DNA from: Antedon mediterranea
Lineage: Eukaryota; Animalia; Echinodermata
Direction of reading: 5' to 3'
Length of the DNA stretch: 64,000 bases
Assembly: GCF_964355755.1 (NCBI RefSeq)
Contig: NC_092675.1
Location: 30,848,912 to 30,912,911, forward strand
Positions 36,407-59,114 of this stretch are shown in pieces; within the stretch, counting starts at the first letter, position 1; each line of letters begins with the position of its first letter. The notes under the pieces were generated by a model. That model searched no databases. It saw only the letters and a program-made list of their open reading frames with translations, and had not been told where the DNA came from. The translations under genes and the position numbers were made by a program.

Positions 36407-36653
36407 TGTAGTGCCGCTACACAGATGCTTAAGCGGAGCGCGTCGTTCTAAACACCTGGACGCGCTCCGCCGTGCGTATCTTGGAACGTCAAGTACGTTT
36501 GGGACACTTGAGAAGTCGACGACGGAAACTAAACCTATATTATTACTACTCACTTATTATTATCATACAAAGACTATTACAATGGTGAGTATTTTACGTT
36601 GTAGTCTTTTATCGTAGTTAAGGAACTAAACCAAGAGACTAGCAATCTCTTTA
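36407..36653 (+). repeat. 5' LTR
   Basis: Starts TGTAGTG, ends CTCTTTA; direct repeat of 40738-40984. Confidence 0.95.
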
Positions 36654-39110: not shown

Positions 39111-39217
39111 ACTATTTTTGTTACAGGCGCCAGAGTTTTCGTCCCAACAATTTGTAATCGAGGGGTAGAAATACTATCTTGTACTAAACTTGTGTTTTGC
39201 CTCTTAATGTTTTACAG

Positions 39218-40446
39218 ATGGATAACTGCACTACTTCCGATCGAGTAACGGTGGAGGAGGAATTGTTCCTGCTGCAGGTGGAAGACTTCCCGCCGTTGGG
39301 CAAACCAGCTGCGAAACGAAAGTCTCCACCTTCACCTACTGGATTGGAAGAAGATGATGTGGCGATGGAGGTCGGGGACCTAGATCCGCCAGTAGTTGAG
39401 GGCAGAGAGACGCCAGAGGTCTTGGCAGGATCGCCGGAGAGGCCAAAGTCCACCTCCATTTTTCGTAAAGAGTTGCTTCCCGCCGCGCCAGCCGTGAAGG
39501 TATGGCGAACTCCGGGAAGTAAGGAGTCGGACTTTGCGTGCCGAGACGTCCGTCTCGTTGGTACGGCGACCAGTGCTGTTCCACCTAGTGCTGGGGCGGT
39601 ACCAAAAGTTAAATCTCAGGGAAAGGCCGACAAACGGTCGAAAGACAACAAAAGACCTCATCCTGAAGGCGGTCAGAGGGAATCGGGTAAGCGGTCACGT
39701 CGGGCATTCCTGTGTCCAGTGGCAGGATGTGGCCGGGTGCCCGAAAACCCAAAACAACACCTGACGCACCACATACCGCCATTCATAACGGAAACATCGC
39801 CGGAGGTATCGTCGACCACCTCATCTCGGCGCTGGAGTTTCATCCAGGAGTTAGTGAAACTCGTTCCGGAGTGCGGCGGGAGTGTCACCAAGGCGGTAGC
39901 ACTTTTCAACGCCGAGGGGAGAATCCAGCCTGGATTCTTCTTCACCAAATCTCTAAGGAAGATGATGGAGTCGATGGGCGAGGCGGCGGGGCTCGAGATG
40001 CCCGAGTCGAACACTCTATCGCCGTTAGTGTCACCGCTGGGTCTGCTCCACACTCGGTGTCTCCTTTTCCTGGTGGCGAGAGCCACTAGGGATAATAAGG
40101 GGGCATTTGTGGAGCTGTGCCAGAGGTATGGTAGGCCTACCTCGGCGGAGCCCAGACGCCGTCGATTTCCTAAGCCAACTGGACCACTACGTCAACGGAC
40201 CGGACCATCATCACGCCAAGCACGGTGGCAACCGAACGTGGAAAACAACATCCATTCACCCACGCCATTGTTATGCCAGTTAAGGCGGGCCGACAGAGTT
40301 GCTCTGCGGTCGGCATTCAATGCCAATCGGGAGGTGGTGGAGCGTTTGGCTCAGCCGGGAAGTGGCCAGCTGAGGGCAGCGGCGGTTAGGATGTTGGAGG
40401 GATTCTTGGAAAACCTCCACTTCCACGCCCAGTTTGCCTATGAATA

Positions 40447-40447
<1 letters not shown>
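39218..40447 (+). CDS. Unknown ~409-aa cargo protein of the LTR element with a CxxxxC...HxxHH zinc-finger-like motif
   Basis: Uninterrupted GC-rich ORF; ATG directly after the acceptor ttttacag; basic NLS-like patches; CPVAGCGRVPENPKQHLTHH; an A-tract of ~32 nt begins 3 nt after the stop. Confidence 0.7.
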
Positions 40448-40737: not shown

Positions 40738-40984
40738 TGTAGTGCCGCTACACAGATGCTTAAGCGGAGCGCGTCGTTCTAAACACCTGGACGCGCTCCG
40801 CCGTGCGTATCTTGGAACGTCAAGTACGTTTGGGACACTTGAGAAGTCGACGACGGAAACTAAACCTATATTATTACTACTCACTTATTATTATCATACA
40901 AAGACTATTACAATGGTGAGTATTTTACGTTGTAGTCTTTTATCGTAGTTAAGGAACTAAACCAAGAGACTAGCAATCTCTTTA
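40738..40984 (+). repeat. 3' LTR
   Basis: Identical to the 5' LTR; followed by the AAAC TSD. Confidence 0.95.
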
Positions 40985-41545: not shown

Positions 41546-42333
41546 CCAAGTGCACTGTTTTTAATTCCACCAGTGAGGTATACCTCCCTGATTCCACTGC
41601 CTCAAGTTTTATTCAAATGCTAGACCCTAGTAGAGTCTAACTCTAAGGCTTACCTTACAACAGTTCCATGCGTAAATAAATGCCTATCTAGGCCTATACC
41701 TAGGCCTAAGGCCTACTGTAGCTCGGTAGATCTATGAATGATACAGAATTTATTTTTAACATAACTTTGATTTTGTTTGTTTGCTTGTTTTTTAGATTTT
41801 TTTTATTACTGATAATTAATGATGTTGAATTTTATGGGTATTTCAAAAGAAATCAAATCAATATTAATCATATTAAATTTTCAATTCAAATAATTATAAT
41901 AACAAATATCCACAATGTAGTACAAAATATTAAAAATAAATCTTATTTCATCACCTCAATACATTTCAATACAAATAGGCTGTATCGATGATGGCGACCT
42001 TAGCAAAGTCAGATGAAGAACAAAATATTTTTGTATAATGATACAATGATGAATATCAAGTTGAAAATTAATCGTCTTGCAGCAGCAGAGAATTCACTTT
42101 TACTTCATTCTCCTTTTCTTAGCCACAGCTATTAATAGGCAAAGATTATGTGATGAAATGCAACACAACAATAAAATACATAAAGATTAGATAACAATTT
42201 GCATTAAAATACTAAAAGATAATATTACTAGTACAACAACCTCTTGCATCCGTTCATCTGATCTCAAATCGTGTGTGTTTGTTTTCAGCATTGTATGTTG
42301 GTAACTTTTGTTCGCTTTGCAAGTCGGATCATA

Positions 42334-45300
42334 ATGTCATCTGAGAAGCCGTTGGTAGCATTTGTGCTTGGAGCCCCTGGAGCAGGAAAGGGTACACAAT
42401 GCTCTAAGATCGTTGAGGTAAGTTTCATTCACACTGAATGTTCTAATTAATATTCTACTATTGTCAAGATAAGATAAGATAACTTTTATTGATCCTCAAC
42501 AAGGAAATTCATTGCTCGTCATAATAACAAAGAAAACACAATAAAAACAAATATAGCATAAAACCATTCATATAAAAACATCTAAAAAATTACAATATAA
42601 AATTATCTTCTTGACTTCCTGTTGTACTGGATGATACCGAAGGGAATAAAGGATTTAGCAAATCGATTTGTTTTCACACTGAGGAGCCTCAATCTACCAC
42701 TTGGATTAAGTTGGTCTATGATCACTTTGTGGAGAGGATGAGAGGCATCCGACTCAATGCGTTCGAAATCTTTCTGGAGGTGTTCTAGGTGCACATCGGT
42801 AAAGGAAGGCAGTTCCAGACCAATCATTTTACCAGCCCGACGAAAGTTTCAAGGCGTCCTTTATTCCCTCCGGTAACATTACCAGCCCAACAGGAGAGGC
42901 AATACGTCCAAACACTACATATAACGGATCTATAAAACGAAAGTAACATCAAATCACAGGAGTTAAATTTATATAAAGTTCTCATACAATACATTCTGGG
43001 ATTTAATTTTTTGCTGATGTAGTCTATATGGTCTCCCCAATTCAGTTTATCATTGAAAACAATTCCTAGATACTTGTACTGGTCAACAATTTCAATTTCT
43101 TTACCTTTGATAGTGATTGGTTGAAAATTAAATTTATGTTTAGTCCTAAAATCAATGATCATCTCCTTTGTTTTTGATGCATTTATTTGGAGATAATTAT
43201 CGTCACAAAATTTTACAAATCTTTGTATTTCGCTACGATAATTTTCATCATTGTTTGAAACTATGAGACCAATAGTACTAGTGTCATCAGCGAATTTAAC
43301 AACGGGGCAAAGCTCATCATTTAAAGATCTGTAATCGGCCGTATACAAGGAATATAATTTAGGTGCGTTGACAGTACCCTGAGGAACACTGGTGTCAGAG
43401 GTTACGATTTCTGACTTAACACCATTAATATTAACAAATTGTTTTCTATCACAAATGAAATTTAAAACTAAACGAACAATCGGACGGGGAAACTCCATAT
43501 TCAACATTTTGTCTGCTAAGATATGGGGTTGTATGGTATTAAACGCAGACTGAAAATCAAAATACATAATACGTGCCGAGTGGCCTTTCTTTACATTATC
43601 TAGATGTGAATACAATTTATGTAATTTAAAATAAATCGCATCACTGGTACTACGGAGTGATCGGTAAGCAAATTGCAACGGGTCTAACACTTTTTCAGCA
43701 TAAGGTTGCATAATTTTTAAAATAATACGTTCCAATATTTTCATCGCGACAGACGTGAGTGCAACAGGTCTCAAATCATTCATGCTGTTAATCTTAGGTT
43801 TCTTAGGTACCGGTATTATGCATGAAAGTTTCCAAATATCCGGGAACGCATGATAAGAAAGACACATATTGAAAATAAATGTAAATATACCATCAAGGTG
43901 AGGAGAGCAGACCTTAAGTACTCGTGGTGGGATTCTATCCGGCCCAGCAGCCTTCGATGAATTGAGTTTCATGAATTCGTTATGTACATCAGAAATGCTT
44001 ATACTAAATTTGGGATCATCTTCAGTCACCCGACACAAGCTAAATAGGGCCTCTCTTTCTTTTTTAAAATCATGAACATTAAAACGGTTATAAAATTCAT
44101 TTAACTCATTAACATATTGCACAGTAACATTCGGAATCGAGGTGGGTGTATTACCACCGTTTGTGTAACCACTCATAAGTTTAATACCCTGCCAAACTTG
44201 TTTCATATTATTAGACCTGAAGTTATGTTCAACTTTTTTCCTATAAATGTTCTTCTGTTTCATTATTTCAGATTTAATCTCTCTAGTCAATATTTTCATA
44301 CGATTAGAGTCGCCCATCTTAAAGGCTTTACGTTTCTCACACAACAGTAATTTAACGCCTTTCGTGATCCATGGCTTGTTATTAGGGTAGATTTTCACTT
44401 TTTTAACTGGAACGCATTTATCAATACAAAAGTTTATGTACGAGCTCACTGCATAAGTAATACTATTCAAATCTTCATCCTCCGTAAAAATATCCCAATC
44501 GGTAGATTCAAATTCCGCTATCAGGGCTTCCTCGGCTTCAGGAGACCATTTACGTACATTAATAATTTTTGGTTGGCATGTCTTATTTAACGGGCGATAT
44601 TTAGGACTGAGTAAAATCAAATTATGATCAGATTTGCCCAAGTTCGGTAGTGGGGTCGAAATATAGGCATCCTTCACACTAGAGTAGCATAAATCAAGAA
44701 TCGCGTTGTCCCTCGTTTTACATGTAACATGCTGATAATATGTGGCCGTTGTTTTCTTGAGCTTGCATCTGTTGAAATCGCCATTGATAATTACAAGCGC
44801 CTCAGGGTGACTACACTCAATACCTTCGATAATTTCTGCGATCTCATTTATAGCAGGCTTTTTAAGCTTTTTGTTAGGTATGTATACCATAACATTGATA
44901 ACATGCGAGAACTCTCTCGGAAGATAGTAGGGGCGAATACCAACAACCAGCACTTCCGAGTGTGGCGAACATTTATGAAGCTTAAGCGTAGAGTTATTTG
45001 GATGACAGTATTTCTCATTAATGTAGAGGCAAAGACCACCACCGCCATCTTTGTTCGCTTCGGCTGTACGATCCCCACGAACAGATTTAAAGCCAACTAC
45101 TTGAATATGTTGATCGCTGTGCTTATCGCTCAGGTGGGTTTCCGTGAATGCAAGTAAGCTGGCATTCCTAAAATCGCTGAAGTGTTCGACGTTTGCTCTG
45201 AGTAAATCGACTTTGTTATTCAAAGATCTAACATTTCCAAATATTAAAGATGGTATAAAAGGCTTACATTTCCTTCGTTGTAGTCGTTTTCTGACCCCAC

Positions 45301-48300
45301 CAGCCTTGCCCCTTTTCCGAGGCCTGCGACGTTGTATCTCAGATGGTAATTCAACGTGTGCCGGTAGCGGTGAGGTCGACCTCTCGCCCATGGAATGCAA
45401 ATCAGATGACGTGTACGCAATTCCACCGCCCGGCTTACTCAATCCACACAGTAAGAACATCCAATAAATCAGCAAAAAATACAGAAATTTCAAAACTTTC
45501 ACATACAACATAATGTATAAATCAAATGACTTCTTCCACAATACAATACAGTCCAAATATACGAAAATAACGTCAAAAAATGAGGAACAACAGTGAGACG
45601 AGCTGTGTCGCCGTGTTGCACAGCTCCACTAACAAGTCAAGTAATGGTTGGTAGCTTTTAAGTTTTTGTGGTGATATACCTTGTTTTATAATGTTGCTAT
45701 CATATTTGGGCACATCAAACTTTTTTTGTCAAACTAGTTTGATAGTGTCAGAGCTTTATAATTTTTTTTAACAATGCTTTTTTTAGAATCAACTTAAATG
45801 TGTAATTTTGTATGTAGGAGTTTGGTTATGTTCACTTATCAGCAGGTGATTTATTAAGAGCAGAAAGAAACAAGGAAGGATCCGAATATGGCGAGCTAAT
45901 ACAGACACACATTAAGAACGGCTCTATTGTGCCGGTTGCAATTACGATAAGTCTCATCGAAAGGGTATGCTATGCAACTATGTTACATTATTTTGTGTTT
46001 GCCTCAGCACTGTGGTGCTAGTATGTTTGCCACGAGGAGAATTCTTTCTTTACCAGCATGTCCGCAAGTGCGCCTATGGTTTTAGAATAAGAATTTTGAA
46101 TAATGAAAATGATCTTGTTAGGTGTACTACGAACTATCTGTTACGATCTTCAAATGTCTTCACTAAATGGGAGAAAATCATATTTTATTGTGATTTTCCA
46201 TTTTGTTTGTTGTATATATGGAATTTTTATTCTTAAATAAAATGATCAATAAATATTGGTCTCAAACAGTTTAGAAAACAGGTTTTAGCAGTAGCGTCTG
46301 CACACAAAAACCTTAACATTTGTCTTTTAAGCTGGGTGGGAAGTGTTTACTTACAGTGGGAGGCGTCGCCTTGCTCTGCTCCCCATAACTACATCCCTAT
46401 GCAGAAAGTTTTTCATCATGACATGACGTCAGTAGCAATATTTAAAGTAATAAAGTCCATTATATAACATAATGATTTCTTTACTAGGCCATGAATGAAA
46501 GTACTGTTAAAAAGTTTTTAGTGGATGGTTTTCCACGAAATGAAGACAATTTAACCGGTTGGGACCAACAAATGACCGACAAAGTTAATCTCAAATTTGT
46601 ACTGTTTTTTGAGTGCTCAGAAGAGGTAAATTTATTTTTCTTTTATTTCATTAAAAACATATTTGTACAAGCGAAAAACATATCAGGTATAGATATTGCA
46701 CATGTTACATATGGTCCTGTTTTTTTAAAGTAATAGATTAAAAAACATTCATAAAAAGACATTAAAACTGACTAATAAAACTGTAAAAATGGCCTTTCTT
46801 TTTGCTGTTTATGTTTTAAATGCAAGGTATATATTTTGGTGAAATGCTTGTTGTCAAAAAGTCTTGTGAATAACTGATTTGTAATTTCCAAACTTGACCC
46901 TGTCTCCATGTTATTAACAGGAATGTGTAAAAAGGTGTTTAAAAAGAGGCGAGGAAGCCGCTAAACAAGGAACAGCAGCAAGAGCTGACGATAACGAAGA
47001 GAGTCTAAAAAAGAGGTAAATCTTGTCTTCATAAACAGTGCTGTTTTTCTATAGTATTAATAGGCCGCAGATAATTTTATGCAGGATTTGGAGGTCGAAA
47101 GTTGTTCTTCCTAGACCTAAGTATTCATTAGTTATGTTGCTCCCTATCTGGCAGAGTAATACTGTGTATCTTGCCAACATTTTAATGTAAATAAAAATAT
47201 TTACTAACAAAGCAATGTGTTCTAAATAATATGAATTAAATGACTACAATTTAATTTTAGGTTTAATACACACATGTCATCAACAATGCCAATTATTGAG
47301 CATTATGCCAAACAGAACTTGGTGGAGAAAGTAGAGGCTAATAGACCAGCAGACGAGGTAAGTAAATAACAAAGCAAATGTATCAACTAAACATAAAGAT
47401 ATCAGAAAAAAAAATCATGCATTTGTACCGCAAAATGTGCGTACTATGGCATTCAATATTAATCCCTTTTGTAAAACAGGCTGATATAATTAACTTTTTC
47501 TGAGAACTAGGTCGTGTTCGTACGGTGGTTAAAATAAGCGCTTAATTTCACCCATGCCTCGGGTTATAAATTGAGTGTTGTTCGTACTTAAATGCTTAAT
47601 CGACGAATCACAAACCGGAAATTACGTTTTAAGGTCAGTTGTCTTTACAACCTACGACCCCATTTTCGCACGCTAGTTTCGTGTTGTATATTTTTTACTC
47701 GCGATCTTTCTTTACAATAACAATTACTTGCTACCTTTTACACTGCTTATCCTTGCGACAAACCTTATGCCTCTTAACGCCGAAATATGCCTTCTCCTGA
47801 CGACCATTTATTTTACTTGACGAAGAATTTGAGCCCAATGTTACACGAAACACCACCGACCAGCTAGGCCTACTAAGCGGTCTACACCAACAAGGACAGC
47901 ACCAGCTGACGATCGCTCTCGAAGCGTGTATGGAAGAGCTTCGTTGGAGAAATGACGGGCCTAGGCAGCGAACGTTTGTCAAAATTTGATACATTGCCTC
48001 TATCGGAGATTTATTATCCTCGAAGGCCGAGTATAATTGGATTATCGCTGAAATAACCTGCAAATTTGGTGAACATTTTGCCTCGAATTTTTTGTAGCCT
48101 GAGGAAAAAGTTAATTGGGTCACGCGAACGGAAATCGGGAATAAGCTGGTATTTTCAACCCCTACGAACAGGCCCCTAGTCCTTCTAATCATTGTTAATT
48201 GACAGACAATATCCTTCAAACTAGTTTTGTTCTTTTAAATGTATAAACCATTTCCATACGAAATTCTATCTACTATGAATATACTGAATTATTCATTTCT

Positions 48301-48399
48301 TAGCTCGGTTACTTTCTATTTCAAAGTCACACTCAACTTTGACCTTTTCCTTTATTTTTGTAGGTGTTTGCCGACGTTAAGAAACTTTTTACTGAGTAA
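42334..48399 (+). CDS. CMPK1: UMP-CMP kinase, 6 coding exons
   Basis: [15 protein letters not shown]-loop (42334-42417), [15 protein letters not shown] (45819-45964), [12 protein letters not shown] (46488-46625), [12 protein letters not shown] (46921-47015), exon 47261-47357, [11 protein letters not shown] (48364-48399). In-frame upstream ATG at 42295. Confidence 0.95.
42466..45635 (-). mobile_element. Near full-length Rex1/Babar-type non-LTR retrotransposon in CMPK1 intron 1
   Basis: Single APE+RT ORF, (TCTTA)n 3' tail at ~42466-42482, possible GTCAAG TSD (42463-42468 / 45636-45641). Confidence 0.88.
42603..45556 (-). CDS. LINE ORF: APE endonuclease + reverse transcriptase, one frameshift near the C-terminus
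   Basis: GNVRSL, FTETHL, GDFN, LDLCY, SDHNL (APE); [42 protein letters not shown] (RT). The 910-aa frame shifts at ~42845 into the 74-aa tail (HPLH...[10 protein letters not shown]). Confidence 0.88.
45670..45757. mobile_element. Partial Harbinger-like MITE
   Basis: catatttgggcacatc...gtcaaactagtttgatagtgtcagagcttta. Confidence 0.65.
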
Positions 48400-49381
48400 G
48401 CAAATTTTAAGGTTTTGTAGATTTTTAGAAACTTGTGATGTAATAAATAGTAATATAATTGGGTATCTTTGACAAGATAAACAGATTATAACATATTGAT
48501 AAGGATAGTAGAACATATTGATAAGGATAGTAGTGCATATTGATAAGGATAGTAGAACATATTGATAAGGATAGTAGTGCATGTTGTATGCATGTACTTG
48601 ATGCATCTTGTGGAATACAACATTCAGCATTGACATTTTATTTCCTACTCTAATATTCTGTTTCACTTTTTTTAATAATATAGTATACTAGGATATTCCA
48701 AATATCTATTTTATGTTTAACTTTTACTTAATTCCTTGCTTTTTGGTTGACATGGTTGACATATTATAAATTGTATTATTTTAGAATGTAAAACAACTCA
48801 ATTTTTAACCTACTAAAGCTTAAATAACATAAAAGATGAACTTATATTAAGTACCACCACCGAGTTTTTTGTTTTTTTTTACATTTTTCCTGAAAATTAT
48901 TTATAGGCCTAATTTTGTAGAGAGAAAAGAATTATCAAAAATAGCATAACTATGACAAAATAATGATTTAGCTGCTAAAGCTGTTGACAAATTCATTTCA
49001 AATGGATTTGTGAATATTTGGATAAACCTAATTTAAAATGCAAAAGCAGATATTTACACTGCTATTCTATTTTTAACATATTTATAACAAATGTTCATGC
49101 TACAGTATATTAAGGAATAATCAATATCATACATCTGCCATCAGTGTGTAAACTAACTCTACTGAGATATTCATTTAAGTACATGCTATAATATCATTGA
49201 GCATATACATTCAACTCAATTGTAAACTAACTCTACTGAGATATTCATTTAAAGACACGCTATAATATCATTGAGCATATACATTCAACTCAATTGTAAA
49301 CTTTACTCTACTGAGATATTCATTCAGACACTAGACCTACAATTGTTGACGTTTTGTAAAAATACTGCATAGACTGTATAC

Positions 49382-51489
49382 TACTTTAAAAACATTAAGT
49401 CAGTTCATCCCTTGTCTTAAATTGATACTTTACTTTAAAAACATTAAGTCAGTTCATCCCTTGTCTTAAATTGATACTTTACTTTAAAAACATTAAGTCA
49501 GTTCATCCCTTGTCTTAAATTGATACTTTACTTTAAAAACATTAAGTCAGTTCATCCCTTGTCTTAAATTGATACTTTACTTTAAAAACATTAAGTCAGT
49601 TCATCCCTTGTCTTAAATTGATACTTTACTTTAAAAACATTAAGTCAGTTCATCCCTTGTCTTAAATTGATACTTTACTTTAAAAACATTAAGTCAGTTC
49701 ATCCCTTGTCTTAAATTGATACTTTACTTTAAAAACATTAAGTCAGTTCATCCCTTGTCTTAAATTGATACTTTACTTTAAAAACATTAAGCCAGTTCAT
49801 CCCTTGTCTTAAATTGATACTTTACTTTAAAAACATTAAGTCAGTTCATCCCTTGTCTTAAATTGATACTTTACTTTAAAAACATTAAGTCAGTTCATCC
49901 CTTGTCTTAAATTGATACTTTACTTTAAAAACATTAAGTCAGTTCATCCCTTGTCTTAAATTGATACTTTACTTTAAAAACATTAAGCCAGTTCATCCCT
50001 TGTCTTAAATTGATACTTTACTTTAAAAACATTAAGCCAGTTCATCCCTTGTCTTAAATTGATACTTTACTTTAAAAACATTAAGTCAGTTCATCCCTTG
50101 TCTTAAATTGATACTTTACTTTAAAAACATTAAGTCAGTTCATCCCTTGTCTTAAATTGATACTTTACTTTAAAAACATTAAGTCAGTTCATCCCTTGTC
50201 TTAAATTGATACTTTACTTTAAAAACATTAAGTCAGTTCATCCCTTGTCTTAAATTGATACTTTACTTTAAAAACATTAAGTCAGTTCATCCCTTGTCTT
50301 AAATTGATACTTTACTTTAAAAACATTAAGTCAGTTCATCCCTTGTCTTAAATTGATACTTTACTTTAAAAACATTAAGCCAGTTCATCCCTTGTCTTAA
50401 ATTGATACTTTACTTTAAAAACATTAAGTCAGTTCATCCCTTGTCTTAAATTGATACTTTACTTTAAAAACATTAAGTCAGTTCATCCCTTGTCTTAAAT
50501 TGATACTTTACATTAAAAACATTAAGTCAGTTCATCCCTTGTCTTAAATTGATACTTTACTTTAAAAACATTAAGCCAGTTCATCCCTTGTCTTAAATTG
50601 ATACTTTACTTTAAAAACATTAAGTCAGTTCATCCCTTGTCTTAAATTGATACTTTACTTTAAAAACATTAAGTCAGTTCATCCCTTGTCTTAAATTGAT
50701 ACTTTACTTTAAAAACATTAAGTCAGTTCATCCCTTGTCTTAAATTGATACTTTACTTTAAAAACATTAAGCCAGTTCATCCCTTGTCTTAAATTGATAC
50801 TTTACTTTAAAAACATTAAGCCAGTTCATCCCTTGTCTTAAATTGATACTTTACTTTAAAAACATTAAGTCAGTTCATCCCTTGTCTTAAATTGATACTT
50901 TACTTTAAAAACATTAAGTCAGTTCATCCCTTGTCTTAAATTGATACTTTACTTTAAAAACATTAAGTCAGTTCATCCCTTGTCTTAAATTGATACTTTA
51001 CTTTAAAAACATTAAGCCAGTTCATCCCTTGTCTTAAATTGATACTTTACTTTAAAAACATTAAGTCAGTTCATCCCTTGTCTTAAATTGATACTTTACT
51101 TTAAAAACATTAAGCCAGTTCATCCCTTGTCTTAAATTGATACTTTACTTTAAAAACATTAAGCCAGTTCATCTCTTGTCTTAAATTGATACTTTACATT
51201 AAAAACATTAAGTCAGTTCATCCCTTGTCTTAAATTGATACTTTACTTTAAAAACATTAAGTCAGTTCATCCCTTGTCTTAAATTGATACTTTACTTTAA
51301 AAACATTAAGTCAGTTCATCCCTTGTCTTAAATTGATACTTTACTTTAAAAACATTAAGTCAGTTCATCCCTTGTCTTAAATTGATACTTTACTTTAAAA
51401 ACATTAAGTCAGTTCATCCCTTGTCTTAAATTGATACTTTACTTTAAAAACATTAAGCCAGTTCATCCCTTGTCTTAAATTGATACTTT
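49382..51489. repeat. 49-bp satellite array, ~43 copies
   Basis: Unit tactttaaaaacattaag(t/c)cagttcatcccttgtcttaaattgatactt, nearly invariant. Confidence 0.97.
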
Positions 51490-51846
51490 TCACATTTTTA
51501 ACCGTTTAAAGATAAAAACAGTTATTGCAATAGGTCCATATAGTATTTTGTAAATAAAATGAAGTGTGTGACCTTAAATTAGGTCGAAAAACGTAGGTCT
51601 AGTGTCTTTAAGTACATGGTATAATATATAGCATGACACTCAACCCAAATAATGTTAAATATTTTATTTTACATCTGAGGTGAAAAATAATAAAAAATAC
51701 TAACAACTAAAAAAGGTTATTTAAATCATAATACAGTACAGTCAACTAACCAAAAGGTTCCAAATTCATTAATCCATATTTGGATTATCAACATTTCTGA
51801 AAACCAGACAGGAGAGCCCAATGGTGAGTTGACTGTATATAAAAAC

Positions 51847-52025
51847 TACTAACTGGGCTAGGTAGTGTAAGGGATATCACATCTGGTGTATATTGCAAAT
51901 GATCTTATACTAACTGGGCTAGGTAGTGTAAGGGATATCACATCTGCTGTATATTGCAAATGATCTTATACTAACTGGACTAGGTAGTGTAAGGGATATC
52001 ACATCTGGTGTATATTGCAAATGAT
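51847..52025. repeat. 61-bp tandem repeat x3
   Basis: tactaactgggctaggtagtgtaagggatatcacatctggtgtatattgcaaatgatctta. Confidence 0.85.
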
Positions 52026-52770
52026 TTTATAATCATATTTAAACTCATAGTCCGCATCTGGCTTTGTCTCTATTAGCTTATATTTTTTGTTATGCATTCA
52101 AATGGTAAAAATTCTTTTTGTACACCATTACATATACTACTATACAGTCTACTCACTCAATACCTATAATTCTGGTGTTCTAAATAATAATTTGGGACCT
52201 TTTGGACTTCAGTTTTCTGTTTTTGGGAGAGTTGACTGTACTTAAATAAATGTGTGTTTACATACATAAAAGGTGTATTGTAATTGCAGGTATAATAATA
52301 GTCACTATGTGAAATATGTAAATATAACCTGTCATTTGTACCATTGTCAATGTAAAATTAAATCGAATTAATTAATTTTACTGAATTTTGACTTCTTTCT
52401 TTTCTTGTTTGTGGTTCTTTCCTGCTATTCATGCATGTAGAAACCTAACACATTTTCATTTTGTCACTTTCACTCTAACTCAGCACAAGAGAGCACATCA
52501 AATGAATTTGTCCAAAAAGTATGTTTATCAAAATAAAATACTTTGAACACAGTTTGAAACTTTATAGTACAGGTATGCCTTGTGCTGATTGCAATCTGAC
52601 CTGCTCATAGTAGTATAAGCTACATACAGTATTTACAATTGTCTTTAAGAGGTTCTTTTAAAAGGTAAGGGACAAATTTGGGCTTCCTAATTTCTGTCAT
52701 TAAAAAAAATTGGCTGCAAGTTTCATAATACTGACATTTTTTAAACATTTAATTTGACTGCAGACTTAAA

Positions 52771-52929
52771 AGCTCTGTCTACACTATCAAACTAATTTGA
52801 TCAAAAAAAGTGTGATGTGTCCAAATATGATAGTGCTATGCCCAAATATGGTAGTGATATAACATCATCATGTCTATAATATGGGCACATCACATTTTTT
52901 GTGACATGAAGTTTGATAGTGTAGACAGA
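52771..52929. mobile_element. Harbinger-like MITE
   Basis: agctctgtctacactatcaaact ... agtttgatagtgtagacaga. Confidence 0.8.
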
Positions 52930-53157
52930 ATTTAGAAACATATTACTAACCATGGCTGCATATTTGACATTTATCATCTACTACCATACTACCACCGTAC
53001 TACTACCATACTACCACCGTACTACTACCATCGTACTACTACCATACTACCACCGTACTACCACCATCTAAGAAATTGATTACTACTACTATTACCACTA
53101 ATTAATACATTGCATAATGATGACACTGACAGTTCATACAAATGTTTTTATTTACAG

Positions 53158-53335
53158 TCAACCTGCTGAGCCAACATCACCAGCACCTGCTGCTGATATT
53201 ACACCCTCTAGTGAGCAATCCCCTCAAACCGCCGAGGAACCAGCGACGGAAGAACCAGCGAGAGAAGAATCAGTGACACAAGAACCAGCGACAGAAGAAC
53301 CAAAGTCAACCTCCTGGTTTTGTCAAATATTGTAA
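53158..53335 (+). CDS. CMPK1: Putative alternative terminal exon of CMPK1 encoding an acidic/Pro-rich tail and CaaX box (CQIL)
   Basis: Acceptor tttacag|T CAA CCT is phase-compatible with the donor GA|gtaagc that overlaps the CMPK1 stop (48395/48396); the exon is GC-richer than its flanks and ends SWFCQIL*. Confidence 0.7.
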
Positions 53336-53723
53336 TTTCTTAGGACATGTTTTATCTCATTTAAAAAAAAATTATTTTGTTTTGTTTTTCTATAACTTTT
53401 AGACAGTTTTTATAGAATAATAGCCACATAATTACATTACAGAGATACAAATTTACCTAAGTTTGTACTCAATTTACTAAAGTTTGTACACTTGATTACT
53501 TTTTGGTGGTAGGTGAATTGTGACCAAAAAAATTAAAAAGTTAACTAACTTTATCTATCATTAAAATAATGAATATAAATTTAAATAATATTTATTTTAC
53601 CTTGAGATTTAGAGCCAAGTGTTGCTTTTGGGGTTTTTAGAAAAAGTATAGTTAGTTTTAATATATCTTATTTGTTTAAATCAAAAATATACATTGCACA
53701 CATGCTATTTTGTTTTACAAGGC

Positions 53724-53940
53724 AAAGTTTAGCATCTGAATCATGTTTGAGTGAAATACAAGCAGTGCCATTAGTAAAGTTTAGCATCTGAATCATGTTT
53801 GAGTGAAATACAAGCAGCAGTGCCATTAGTAAAGTTTAGCATCTGAATCATGTTTGAGTGAAATACAAGCAGCAGTGCCATTAGTAAAGTTTAGCATCTG
53901 AATCATGTTTGAGTGAAATACAAGCAGCAGTGCCATTAGT
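53724..53940. repeat. 55-bp tandem repeat x4
   Basis: aaagtttagcatctgaatcatgtttgagtgaaatacaagcagcagtgccattagt. Confidence 0.85.
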
Positions 53941-54935
53941 TTATTGACTGTATGTATGTCATAGTTTTAAAAAGGAGTATTCCATTCTGTTGACATCTGT
54001 TTTTATTTGCTTTTGTTAAATGGAAAATTATGGTAGATTTATAGCTCTATGTTTGACCTACCAAAGCAATTGTTGGAGACGCAAAACGATCATGGTGATA
54101 GCAATCCTGAACATAATTCAAAAATTTGTAAAAATGTATTTAATTATATCAAGACTTCGAATAACAGAATAGCAATTTGAATAACTCAAATTTATCTTGG
54201 AAGTGAAAAGAAAACTCAAACTATTGTTGTTAAATGTGTACATTTAATGTAACACAGTTTGTAACTATTGTTGTTAAATGTGTACATCCAATGTAACAAA
54301 GTTCATGTCAACATAAAAAAAAAAAACCAACATCGACAATAAGAATTGTACTGTGTACATGCTTATTAAAAACATGGCTTGAATATGTTTGTCTTTTTGC
54401 AAATTATTTGAAAGGATAGATGTCTTTTCGTTACTGAACTAGTAGATAAACATGTGACGGCTGTAGGTATGTGTTAATGGTGTGGTGACGGTCAGTGGGT
54501 GTGTGAAGGCCTCCGTTTAAATGGCACATCAGTATATTAATTTGTCCCATTTTATATCTTTTTACCAGTAGTAAATGTCTAATGTCAATATCCGGTCTCG
54601 GTGTATTCCTGTGGTCACCAGCTAGACTTTAATGGTGATGATTTATATTCTGTAAACTCCCACTTCCCTGTAAACTAGTGATGCACTGGTTGTGTATGCT
54701 ATAGAAAAGGGAGTGCTGTAAAACATGCCTTAACACTTCAATGTTTATTATACTGTAAAAGTTTATGTTTTGTACTTAATAATCATACAGATACAACATA
54801 ATGCTTACTACATTTTATTATTAACAAATCAATTTTTATTTGACGTTTATACATATAGAAGTATTCCAACGTTTGTAGAAAAATGCCTTGATTTACATTT
54901 AAGTTAATATGCTTTGTGTTCATTTGTGAAATCAT

Positions 54936-57896
54936 TCACCTCTTTCTATAAAAGGTACTTTTCTCAATTCCCTTTGCATCCTCTGGTCTAATAGTTGTGA
55001 ATACATCATCTGTGACATCTTCTGCATATAATGGTCCAGGTTCCTTGGCGTCTTTGGCAATCTTAGCAAGCACTCTCTCCTCGTACTTACTTCCTTTTGC
55101 AAGACGTACTTCTCTTCGTAACTAAAGATAAAATAAATTTAATTTATAAATACGTATCAAGGTTTGTAATCAACACAGATAATTCATGAAATTGACAACT
55201 CACCAAATTTGGAGACTTGTATGCAGCATTCTCATACAGAACTTGTCCACTAAAACTGCCTGCAAAAATCTTGATGGGGTTAAGAACGAACCTAGGACCA
55301 ATCTCAACTAAAGAACCATCCTCTTCAACCACCTAACAAACATAAGATGGGAAGGATTGTCAAAGATGAATAAATAAAAGTACAAAAACAAAGATATTTT
55401 GTTCTTTGCTTGTCACTCTATCCACATCCCCCTTAAAATATACATAACAGTAACAAATAGAATATATAAATGCACAAGGTAAATATGAAAATACAGTAGC
55501 TGAAATATATTGCTTTTAAATACTATACTGAATACAAACCTCCTCCTTTAACAAACAAACTTTGATTTACTAAAATGTGAAATAAATCCTGTATGGTAAG
55601 TAGTAGTTACCTGATAATTCCTGAACCACACTCTGTTGTCGGCAATTGAGAAATTAAAAACATGGTCAATAAACGGCTGACTCTTTGGATGACGATGCGG
55701 TGTACCAAATGTCTACATTATTCAAATAAATCAATAAAATAAGTTTGGAGACATCCCTTTTTTTCTTTACATTATCTTTCCATGTTACTACATCATAATT
55801 GGTGTAAAACATAGAGAAATGAGAAGTTATTCTAACTGTTATTCAAATTGAGGTCAGGTCAAAGATGAATTTTAGAAATTTGACAATAAGAGTTGTTATA
55901 ATCAGTATGCTTCAAATAATCATAAAACAAAATGTTTACACTTTCCTCTTGATATGCACAAGCAAATACATATAGGGAACTGGACTATGTTCTGAAATGA
56001 GTAATACTACATAGGGAACTGGACTATGTTCTGAAATGAGTAATACTACAGAGGGAACTGGACTATGTTCTGAAATGAGTAATACTACAGAGGGAACTGG
56101 ACTATGTTCTGAAATGAGTAATACTACAGAGGGAACTGGACTATGTTCTGAAATGAGTAATACTACAGAGGGAACTGGACTATGTTCTGAAATGAGTAAT
56201 ACTACAGGGCAGTTTTAACTGTAGGTTATGCGGACAGTTTCTCACCTGTATAAATAGTTCTTTTAAAAGCCTATTATGAGGAGTTTTATCGAAAACAGAG
56301 TCGAATGACAAAATAGGACGTGAAGATTTTAAACAATTTCCAGTTAGTTTCAGCTCAAGCATCGTGTGAACTGTGAAGAAATCAAAGATTTAATATTGCT
56401 ATTAATAAGGTGCAGTTAACATTTCTCAATCAACTGTAACTGAAATGTTATCTGTAGTTGTGCAAATTTCTAATAATATTTATTCTACAGTACAAACAAA
56501 TTTTCAGTTAATTTTTACAGTTTATTTTTTACATCACTATCTCCAATAAAAGATTCAAATAATATATTTCCAAAAAATGTTTACCATTTTGAACAAGAAA
56601 CTTGGCAGATGGTCCATGTGGTACATTTGATACCCTACAGAAACAAATATTATATATTATATCAAATGTATTCCTTTGTTATTTATAATGTGTACTGTAT
56701 AGATCTATAACATTTACAGATGTGGTTAGAATAGGGATGACATCCATGTACTGTATGATTGAATAACAAAAGGAAATGTATTGCTTGTTTACATTAAGAT
56801 ATGACTTATTCTTTCTTATTCTGTACATGCTTGGAATCATTGATTATATTAAACATTTTACTAGAATTGAATACTGCATTACCACATGTACAGGTCTTTT
56901 TTCTTCCTCGCTTCAAAATACACACATTTGCTACAATTTTTCATTTCACAAATCTATAAAAAAATATTTCAAAATGAAGAAAAATCAACATAAAGTTTAG
57001 AACATATATATTTTTGGTTTGTTTGTTTGCATTGCTCTTATGCAAATACAGTACTTGAATATACATTTGGTAAGAATGGCTAAATAAGTTAATACTAAAT
57101 ATTTATTCAGAAATCAAACACAAACTACAAACACTTTATAAATAAAATAAAGATGACTAAAAAATGTACTTACTTCATTTATACTAAATAGACCCTGTCC
57201 TTTAGACATCTTACAATCTGTAAACAAAAATCAATATTAAGTAAACATTTTAATCATTAAAACACAAATCTATTAAAATTGAAGTAGTTAAGTTTATTAT
57301 TTCTTACCAGGTTTTGAATGTGGCATCAGATTTCGAATATCTTGCATAAGATGTCGATCTCGATATGATACACCACGCGATGCAAAAACCAGTACTCGCT
57401 CTTTGTTTGTCCATTTCTCTGACTAAATAATAAATATTTTTAATTGCTAGATTCTAAGGCTAGAATGAATGGTACATTTATAAAATCAAAACTATTAGTA
57501 TTAAATTAAATAAAACACATTTTTTTATCAGTTTTTTATAAAATATAATTAGTAATAGTATCCAATATTCTTTCATCTTTAAGCCAAATTTACAGTCAGC
57601 TAGTCCCTGCCCCCTGGTATCCTAAATTAAATAAAACAATAGTTCCTAGCTAGGCCTCCTAGCCGTCATATTCCTCCCAGGTCTAGCCTGCAGAACAGCA
57701 GCCTACTTACTATAAACTAGAAAGTTTAGTTAGGCCTACTAGAAGGCTAGAGGCTAGCCAATATTATCTCTCAATATTGGTGAAAAACACTTACCGATGA
57801 AGAAGTAATCTTTGATTCACTTTGTTTTTTGGTTGCTTTAAGACGCTTTATATTCTGTTTCGGATTTGTCTCCTTTTGAAGCTTCCTTTTCGTCAT
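54936..57896 (-). CDS. BRIX1: Ribosome biogenesis protein BRX1 homolog, multi-exon
   Basis: KWTNKERVLVFASRGVSYRDRHLMQDIRNLMPHSK, LELKLTGNCLKSSRPILSFD, HPKSQPFIDHVFNFSIADNRVWFRNYQ, LVEIGPRFVLNPIKIFAGSFSG; ATG 57896, TGA 54938-54936. Confidence 0.95.
55970..56207. repeat. 39-bp minisatellite x6 in BRIX1 intron
   Basis: agggaactggactatgttctgaaatgagtaatactacag. Confidence 0.92.
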
Positions 57897-58634
57897 TTTA
57901 AAGCCTATTTTTACTCTGACAAAAACAAAGTTCACTTTGCGTTTCCACGTTCGTACACATACACATGGATGTGCGTTCCTATTTCAAGAGGGCGCAATTG
58001 CAATTGGGAATAATTCGATAATCGATATCACGAAGAAGCTGCTTTTTTAGAAGATTTTGTTGTTTGAATGAAATAATATCTAATTTCTCTTATTTACATA
58101 AATCAAACAAATCTGTATTATATATTAATGTAAGGGTCAAAAACAACTTTTATCGAAATCCGAAATCCTGAGGAATTGGTAAAATAACTGAACGACGGGA
58201 ACTAATTGACACACCGCCCTCAATTATTGAATATCAATCAATTATTTTTTGTTGTTTAGCATTTGTTTTGGAATGTAATGTTAATGGTCTCTGAAACTCC
58301 TGGGACTCTTGAATATGACGGATACAAATGAATGAAGGCGATTATAACGTGCTAGGTCTAGTTGATAAGTTAAATTACAATATAATATTATAATACACTC
58401 GTTTATTGATAATTATTCTTGACTACCAACAAGGTATGCTGCTTGTTCTAGCTTAGGCTCTAGGCTAGCCAGGCCCAGGGAAAACAACAGCTGCTGCATC
58501 TTTTACTTTTAGTTAGCGGCGCGGACGTGGCAGTTTTCGTGGCAGGAGTACCTTCTGGATTGATTGAGAGTTCAGTAGAGAGGCAGTGCTTTTCAGTCTG
58601 TTCAATTTCTTGCTGTTCGTAGTATTTTCTCGTC

Positions 58635-59114
58635 ATGTTTTCACCAAGTAAATCAAGTATAAAGGAAGCAAATGAACACTTTCAGGCCTTGTACAATAGA
58701 ATCAGTGAACTAGAAAAGACCGTAAAAGACCAAGCAGAAGCAATTATAAAACGAGATGACGAAGAACAACAACGAATGAACGCTGTTACTCAAAAACATC
58801 AAGAAGAAGTTACGAAACTAACCACAAATTTAGAAACAGCAGAAAAGAAAATTGAAATATTATCACGAAACCTTCAAGAAAAAAGTGCAGTTACTACAAC
58901 CTTGCAATATAAATGTCAAATAATAACTGACTTGTGTGCTAGTATCCCTGCTTTTGAATCGTACTTAACAACTCTTAAACAAATTGAAAGCTTAAATTCA
59001 GGAGAATGTAATCACATTGGCCATGGTGGAGCAAAGAGAGTTTTACATAACAATATTGATTCCATTGAATTGAACAATGAAGATGTGGAAATGGATGGCC
59101 AGACAACTGTGTAA
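58635..59114 (+). CDS. VMAC: Vimentin-type intermediate filament-associated coiled-coil protein homolog, single coding exon
   Basis: IKEANEH..., KTVKDQAE, coiled coil and C-terminal GQTTV resemble human IREANAH, RTVHAQAE and GTTV (PDZ-binding tail). Head-to-head with BRIX1, ~740 bp apart. Confidence 0.75.
   Translation: MFSPSKSSIKEANEHFQALYNRISELEKTVKDQAEAIIKRDDEEQQRMNAVTQKHQEEVTKLTTNLETAEKKIEILSRNLQEKSAVTTTLQYKCQIITDLCASIPAFESYLTTLKQIESLNSGECNHIGHGGAKRVLHNNIDSIELNNEDVEMDGQTTV

Follow-up and report, generated by a model that had tools for sequence, protein, structure and literature searches.

UMP-CMP kinase (CMPK) is usually treated as a soluble housekeeping enzyme. Within the same kinase superfamily, an alternative exon gives the adenylate kinase isoform AK1beta a lipid anchor, which moves a soluble enzyme to the membrane (PMC2680645). 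Here, we analyzed a CMPK gene of the crinoid Antedon mediterranea, located in a 64,000-nucleotide stretch of contig NC_092675.1 (positions 30,848,912 to 30,912,911, forward strand). This whole stretch is referred to as the window, and its own numbering is used throughout. A splice donor overlapping the stop codon of this gene leads to a last exon that ends in a predicted geranylgeranylation signal (Table 1). Our results suggest that the product is a prenylated kinase on endoplasmic reticulum (ER) and Golgi membranes that would rephosphorylate uridine and cytidine monophosphate (UMP and CMP) there, a reading that we hold with modest confidence as a whole. No description of a prenylated CMPK was found in literature searches covering open-licence text, with subscription journals outside their reach, which agrees with the first-pass annotation of this DNA.

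The protein encoded by the seven coding exons joined from the ATG at 42295 matched RefSeq XP_071954502.1 of A. mediterranea (database protein P0002) at every residue. Sequence similarity places this protein in the UMP-CMP kinase family. It scored 265.1 bits against the UMP-CMP kinase profile TIGR01359 (cut-off 207.6) and did not reach the cut-off of the AK1 profile (159.9 vs 284.1 bits), and its best PDB matches were UMP-CMP kinases (1tev and 7e9v, E 7.6e-67), while hits in the ESM Atlas were confined to generic clusters of UMP-CMP and adenylate kinases. The GT of the donor overlaps both the last Glu codon and the TAA stop of exon 6, and splicing from 48395 to 53158 is in frame, passing through an LFTD junction and continuing for 58 residues after the junction Asp to the end WFCQIL. 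The first-pass annotation had proposed this donor and this in-frame splice, and both were correct base for base. It had also regarded the unspliced end as the normal one and the spliced isoform as hidden, which did not hold. A search with the tail alone retrieved 1 protein among 70 candidates, the Antedon UMP-CMP kinase-like isoform X2, with a 100% match. The cluster of this protein has two members, isoforms X1 (XP_071954501.1) and X2, both carrying the long end, and the 120 best-ranked of 2500 hits contained no short Antedon form. The isoform is not hidden, because the long end is the only ending in the two Antedon models found, and it is possibly the main form in Antedon. What stands of the proposal is the candidate membrane-tethered isoform itself, whose long form is modelled in two crinoids.

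Among the acceptors of the same phase examined in 48396-55000, the AG at 53157 gave the longest open frame, and a nested AG at 53212 is a candidate acceptor for a shortened tail of 41 aa. The GC content of the last exon is 0.494, vs 0.345 and 0.208 in its flanks. A candidate small exon at 52484 was rejected, as its frame reached a stop after 7 residues. Assignment of the last exon to the neighbouring Brix-domain gene was likewise rejected, because that gene lies on the minus strand.

The C-terminal end is kept in a relative. In Anneissia japonica, isoform X1 (XP_033115062.1, 253 aa) runs from LFTD, with the same junction Asp as in Antedon, into an acidic, Pro-rich linker ending EEPKSSSWFCSIL, the last residues being SWFCSIL. 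Thus, the predicted conservation of the CaaX motif was borne out by a CaaL end (CSIL) in this species. Eleven of the last 13 residues are identical between the two crinoids, and the CaaX motifs differ only by Q/S (CQIL vs CSIL) at the tolerant a1 position, whereas the linker up to the Cys measures 55 residues in Antedon vs 40 in Anneissia. Selection on the end motif, with the linker serving as a spacer, would produce this combination of a constant end and a variable linker. A. japonica isoform X2 (XP_033115064.1, 213 aa) is short and ends LFTECHI. Frames following an AG in Antedon yielded no counterpart of this ECHI end, and Anneissia has both long and short models, whereas only long models were among those found for Antedon. 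Taken from these gene models, the long form is a real variant kept in two crinoids and is already in the databases as automatic predictions.

The CaaX end with Leu at the last position had been interpreted as a signal for geranylgeranyltransferase I (GGTase-I), and published screening data agree with this. All 8000 CXXX motifs have been screened against yeast GGTase-I, with canonically modified motifs being de-enriched; 137 of the 8000, among them Rho/Ras motifs, had E-scores below 0.2 at 37 °C and were read as canonical geranylgeranylated motifs (PMC11304957). In the same dataset, the crinoid motifs fall into this 1.7% class with 37 °C E-scores of 0.026 (CQIL) and 0.014 (CSIL), compared with 0.066 for CAIL, 0 for CTIL, 1.43 for CQLL, and 0.985 for the unmodified control CASQ. 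Both also follow the GGTase-I rule given there, with a Cys fourth from the C-terminus, a2 being nonpolar and X hydrophobic (PMC11304957). In addition, Trp-Phe directly precedes the Cys in both tails, and aromatic residues at this place have been reported to raise prenylation and membrane affinity, with hydrophobic residues ahead of the Cys favouring both prenylation and membrane binding (PMC10590752).

The AlphaFold2 model has a confident core at residues ~20-211, mostly with a predicted local distance difference test score (pLDDT) of 87-97, in which the kinase alpha/beta fold is intact and the P-loop comes from exon 1. After residue 211 there is no helix or strand, and the pLDDT by block is 38-58. 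This suggests an accessible, disordered tail, although a low pLDDT points to disorder without proving it. The tail contains 13 D/E vs 2 K/R in Antedon and 10 vs 2 in Anneissia. The flexible acidic linker of about 55 residues, as originally described, is therefore consistent with both composition and model.

Transcript evidence at the donor came from contigs of four sequencing runs placed on 42200-49370. None of the five runs containing the stretch is recorded as RNA, and run X1 was taken as RNA, a guess, from its spliced contigs. One 533-nt contig of run X1 (depth 212.9) spans five GT..AG joints that are absent from the DNA runs X2, X4, and X5 and, from its listed pieces, ends exactly at the donor, 48395, which contigs of X2, X4, and X5 cross unbroken. 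An end at this base is expected where an assembly meets a fork between spliced and read-through sequence. The X1 contigs past the donor have depths of 34 and 47.2, vs a bin mean of 12.4 at 47000-47239, which is mostly intron 4. This fits a minor read-through form as a hint only, since contig depth cannot rank gene parts.

Table 1. The CMPK gene of A. mediterranea and its long-form end (positions in the window).
Feature	Position	Strand	Evidence and remarks
UMP-CMP kinase coding exon 1	42295..42417	+	upstream ATG 42295, second ATG 42334, P-loop; RNA joint 42415>45816 GT..AG in run X1
UMP-CMP kinase coding exon 2	45818..45964	+	run X1 joints; Pfam ADK
UMP-CMP kinase coding exon 3	46488..46625	+	run X1 joints; Pfam ADK
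UMP-CMP kinase coding exon 4	46921..47015	+	run X1 joints
UMP-CMP kinase coding exon 5	47261..47357	+	run X1 joints
UMP-CMP kinase coding exon 6	48364..48399	+	read-through end LFTE; Glu codon 48394-48396, TAA 48397-48399
Internal splice donor GA/GTAAGC	48394..48401	+	cut after 48395; run X1 533-nt contig ends there
Last intron, long form	48396..53157	+	4762 nt, GT..AG; would also contain the short-form 3' untranslated region
Last coding exon	53158..53335	+	Pro/Glu/Ser/Thr-rich linker, WF-CQIL, stop; frame and database protein match
CaaX motif CQIL	53321..53332	+	predicted geranylgeranylation signal; yeast screen scores
Two ATTAAA hexamers	53532..53565	+	candidate long-form poly(A) signals

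Taken together, the 48395/53158 junction would almost certainly be spliced in vivo. GGTase-I would then very probably geranylgeranylate the Cys, after which the last three residues would be cut off and the end methylated, with the Trp-Phe pair adding membrane affinity. CaaX prenylation has been reported to target proteins to endomembranes, while the plasma membrane requires a polybasic patch or palmitate; CaaX proteins without such a second signal were found on the ER, Golgi, and nuclear envelope (PMC2193662). The crinoid tails are acidic and contain no polybasic patch and no other Cys that could be palmitoylated in either species, so neither form of the second signal is present, and the ER/Golgi is a likely location of the tethered kinase for this reason. 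The prenylated enzyme would on balance stay mostly on endomembranes. UMP exits the ER/Golgi lumen by antiport, and CDP-choline and CDP-diacylglycerol enzymes release CMP at the ER. The role of the tethered kinase might be to recycle the UMP leaving the lumen for UDP-sugars as well as the CMP from CDP-dependent lipid synthesis, a step that we put forward only tentatively, and a tether of 40-55 residues would let the kinase reach these sources. In mammals, the ER enzyme ENTPD5 converts UDP into UMP, which allows the import of UDP-glucose, and CMPK1 rephosphorylates the UMP (PMC12890697, PMC4090452, PMC4115266).

A different possibility, which we consider rather unlikely, is that the tail regulates the enzyme: the lipid could exclude it from the nucleus or the soluble pool or bind a prenyl-binding chaperone, and the linker may set turnover. 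The PEST-like composition of the linker in both crinoids would fit such a role, as would the report that RhoA is cytosolic despite prenylation (PMC2193662). However, the length of the linker is not conserved, and different lineages seem to have added different lipid anchors to CMPK, pointing to closeness to a membrane as the shared goal. It is quite unlikely that the long form, although real and prenylated, acts in the manner of AK1beta at the plasma membrane or cilia, providing UDP and CDP for sub-membrane signalling or nucleotide release. AK1beta has itself been described as a splice variant that is myristoylated and directed to the plasma membrane (PMC2680645), geranylgeranyl and aromatic pre-CaaX residues together give G-gamma subunits strong membrane binding (PMC10590752), and Cdc42 and Rac2, without a clear second signal, partly reached the plasma membrane (PMC2193662). 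Against this stand the strongly acidic tails of both species, without a polybasic region or a palmitoylatable Cys upstream of the CaaX motif. Finally, it is very unlikely that the last exon reflects an annotation error, leaky splicing at a low rate or a neutral addition, with an incidental CaaX match, since, although the junction was not directly seen, the exon has no Pfam match, and an open frame of at least 59 aa after some AG occurred in 52% of 200 shuffles, independent models in two crinoids share the junction residue and the conserved terminal 13 residues, the RNA contig breaks at the donor, an in-frame open reading frame of at least 30 aa ending in C-x-hydrophobic-hydrophobic occurred in just 3% of the shuffles, and both motifs belong to the 1.7% class. 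The length of the frame, not unusual by the same count, was rejected as evidence for the exon. Across the window, 5 of 3957 frames closed by a stop codon end in C-x-[ILV]-L.

Several observations weigh against a prenylated kinase at the ER and Golgi. The 48395>53158 junction was not seen in the contigs placed on 42200-49370. Run X1, only guessed to be RNA, shows some cover in all 30 bins, and the other end of its 533-nt contig (42394) falls inside exon 1, so contigs also end at places that are not splice sites. The RefSeq models carrying the tail are automatic predictions, and the GGTase-I screen used a reporter protein and yeast enzymes, with de-enrichment an indirect readout. Small nucleotides diffuse fast, so the advantage of local supply is not self-evident. 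An Arg-containing N-terminal leader in both Antedon models might target the protein elsewhere. Moreover, the tail is carried by only two species among the animals examined, both crinoids, and none of the 32 members of eight clusters, six from other echinoderms and two from amphioxus, ended in CaaX. The absence of the tail elsewhere is weak evidence, because long forms can sit under short cluster representatives; the tail-alone search missed Anneissia isoform X1, which was placed beneath such a short representative. The count of 0/32 is also limited, because the other echinoderm CMPKs may be paralogues of the crinoid gene. In a tree of 40 rows, the crinoid gene grouped with amphioxus (99/95) in a clade including Saccoglossus and arthropods, apart from the other echinoderm CMPKs, and echinoderm monophyly was rejected (approximately unbiased test, p 0.011; 20 rows, LG+G4). 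The grouping with amphioxus hints at hidden paralogy, in which case the remaining echinoderm genes would be paralogues; alternatively, the pattern may be a rate artefact of the 192 columns. A small insertion in the lid region is common to the crinoid kinase and amphioxus (P0002, P0123, P0021).

The leader at 42295-42333, preceding the second Met, comprises 13 residues, contains Arg, is free of acidic residues, and is kept in the Anneissia and amphioxus models. By its pattern we take it to be a possible mitochondrial targeting peptide. The base at -3 is A for the second ATG (42334) and T for the first (42295).

Predicted lipid anchors were also found in CMPK models of other groups. Sea-urchin isoform models start MGAILS, MGSILS, and MGVIIS (three genera), also MGQVCS, and horseshoe-crab isoform models from two genera start MGTCQS (myristoylation-type models P0390, P0398, P0400, P0386, P0388, P0126-P0128, and P0299). 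We take these starts to be myristoylation motifs by the consensus MGxxxS/T. Among 349 distinct homologue N-termini, Ser/Thr occupied position 6 in 28 of 50 MG-starts vs 31 of 299 others, and Cys occurred at positions 3-6 in 25 of 50 vs 20 of 299. As these sequences share ancestry and the comparison included no control family, the counts show a non-random motif without making it a particular trait of the CMPK family. In an Asterias CMPK model, GTCVT follows an internal Met. At the other end, a Cys at -4 was present in 10 of 404 fetched proteins: 3 crinoid, 3 plausible ones that are non-animal-like (P0194, P0234, and P0257), and 4 others (P0018, P0147, P0190, and P0262) that were set aside as probable mis-predicted ends. 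The three non-animal-like proteins, two protist-like UMP-CMP kinases whose C-terminal domain is uncharacterised and one 5'-nucleotidase/double-kinase fusion, have CaaX-like ends. The scores of CVMM (P0257, 1.01) and CVVC (P0234, 1.32) in the GGTase-I screen lie outside the de-enriched class.

Several other features surround the coding exons. Intron 1 contains a long interspersed nuclear element (LINE)-type element (42463-45635) with an intact 934-aa endonuclease/reverse-transcriptase frame on the minus strand (42824-45628). It is likely a polymorphic recent insertion, because contigs of the DNA runs X2, X4, and X5 skip 42462>45636. Nearly half of the last intron consists of a tandem array of a 49-bp unit (49382-51489; 43 copies, 98% matches). 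Upstream of the gene, identical 247-nt direct repeats (36407-36653 and 40738-40984) enclose 4.1 kb of sequence, in which an open frame of 419 aa (39188-40447), GC-rich and without a Pfam match, is followed by a 33-nt A run; from its sequence, the whole looks like a young long terminal repeat (LTR)-like element. In each repeat, an ATG precedes a donor-like GTGAG site (36582 and 40913), an arrangement that could supply the first Met of Antedon RefSeq isoform X1 via an acceptor near 42288. The Brix-domain gene, presumably BRX1-like, lies at about 54990-57900 on the minus strand and converges on the kinase gene; it was the only other gene found nearby. Head to head with it is a single-exon 163-aa coiled-coil open frame (58623-59114, plus strand), with weak coiled-coil Pfam matches only.

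A broader interpretation, more doubtful than the recycling role proposed above, is that membrane-tethered CMPK arose several times, through a C-terminal geranylgeranyl exon in crinoids, through N-terminal myristoyl exons in sea urchins as well as horseshoe crabs, and through acyl or CaaX ends of protist-like kinases. It would then constitute an unrecognised UMP/CMP-recycling module on the cytosolic ER/Golgi face driving nucleotide-sugar import and phospholipid synthesis, with the anchored form being the main one in Antedon. If animal groups did add different lipid anchors to CMPK, such convergence would indicate a general need that has so far been missed. Two points limit the significance of the finding: RefSeq already lists the protein, as an automatic model, and the CaaX form was seen in only two crinoids. 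The natural long/short pair provides ready constructs for testing membrane-compartmentalised pyrimidine recycling, as proposed for AK1beta.

Compared with known systems, the crinoid form shares its catalytic domain with CMPK1-type UMP-CMP kinases (TIGR01359; 1tev, 7e9v). Solved chains of this type have 194-214 aa and align only to query residue 210-211, whereas the crinoid form has an additional 43-58 residues ending in CaaL. The sea-urchin and horseshoe-crab MG-x-x-x-S models resemble it in having an isoform-specific predicted lipid anchor in the same enzyme family; unlike that of the crinoid form, their predicted anchor is N-terminal. These are database models for which no experiment was found, and the urchin genes lie outside the crinoid clade in trees. 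The C-x-I-L end is like that of CaaL-geranylgeranylated Rho family and G-gamma proteins, falling together with CAIL and CTIL in the screen, and the aromatic pair before the Cys is as in G-gamma3; here, however, a metabolic kinase bears the motif, and the region upstream is acidic rather than basic or palmitoylated. The analogy with lipid-anchored adenylate kinases, already drawn in the first-pass annotation, holds in principle, with a known or predicted lipid-anchored isoform in each case, yet enzyme, lipid, and end all differ. AK1beta and the Plasmodium myristoylated AK2 are adenylate kinases with an N-terminal myristate, and no MG start was found in the crinoid models, in which a UMP-CMP kinase carries a predicted C-terminal prenyl group on a long acidic tether.

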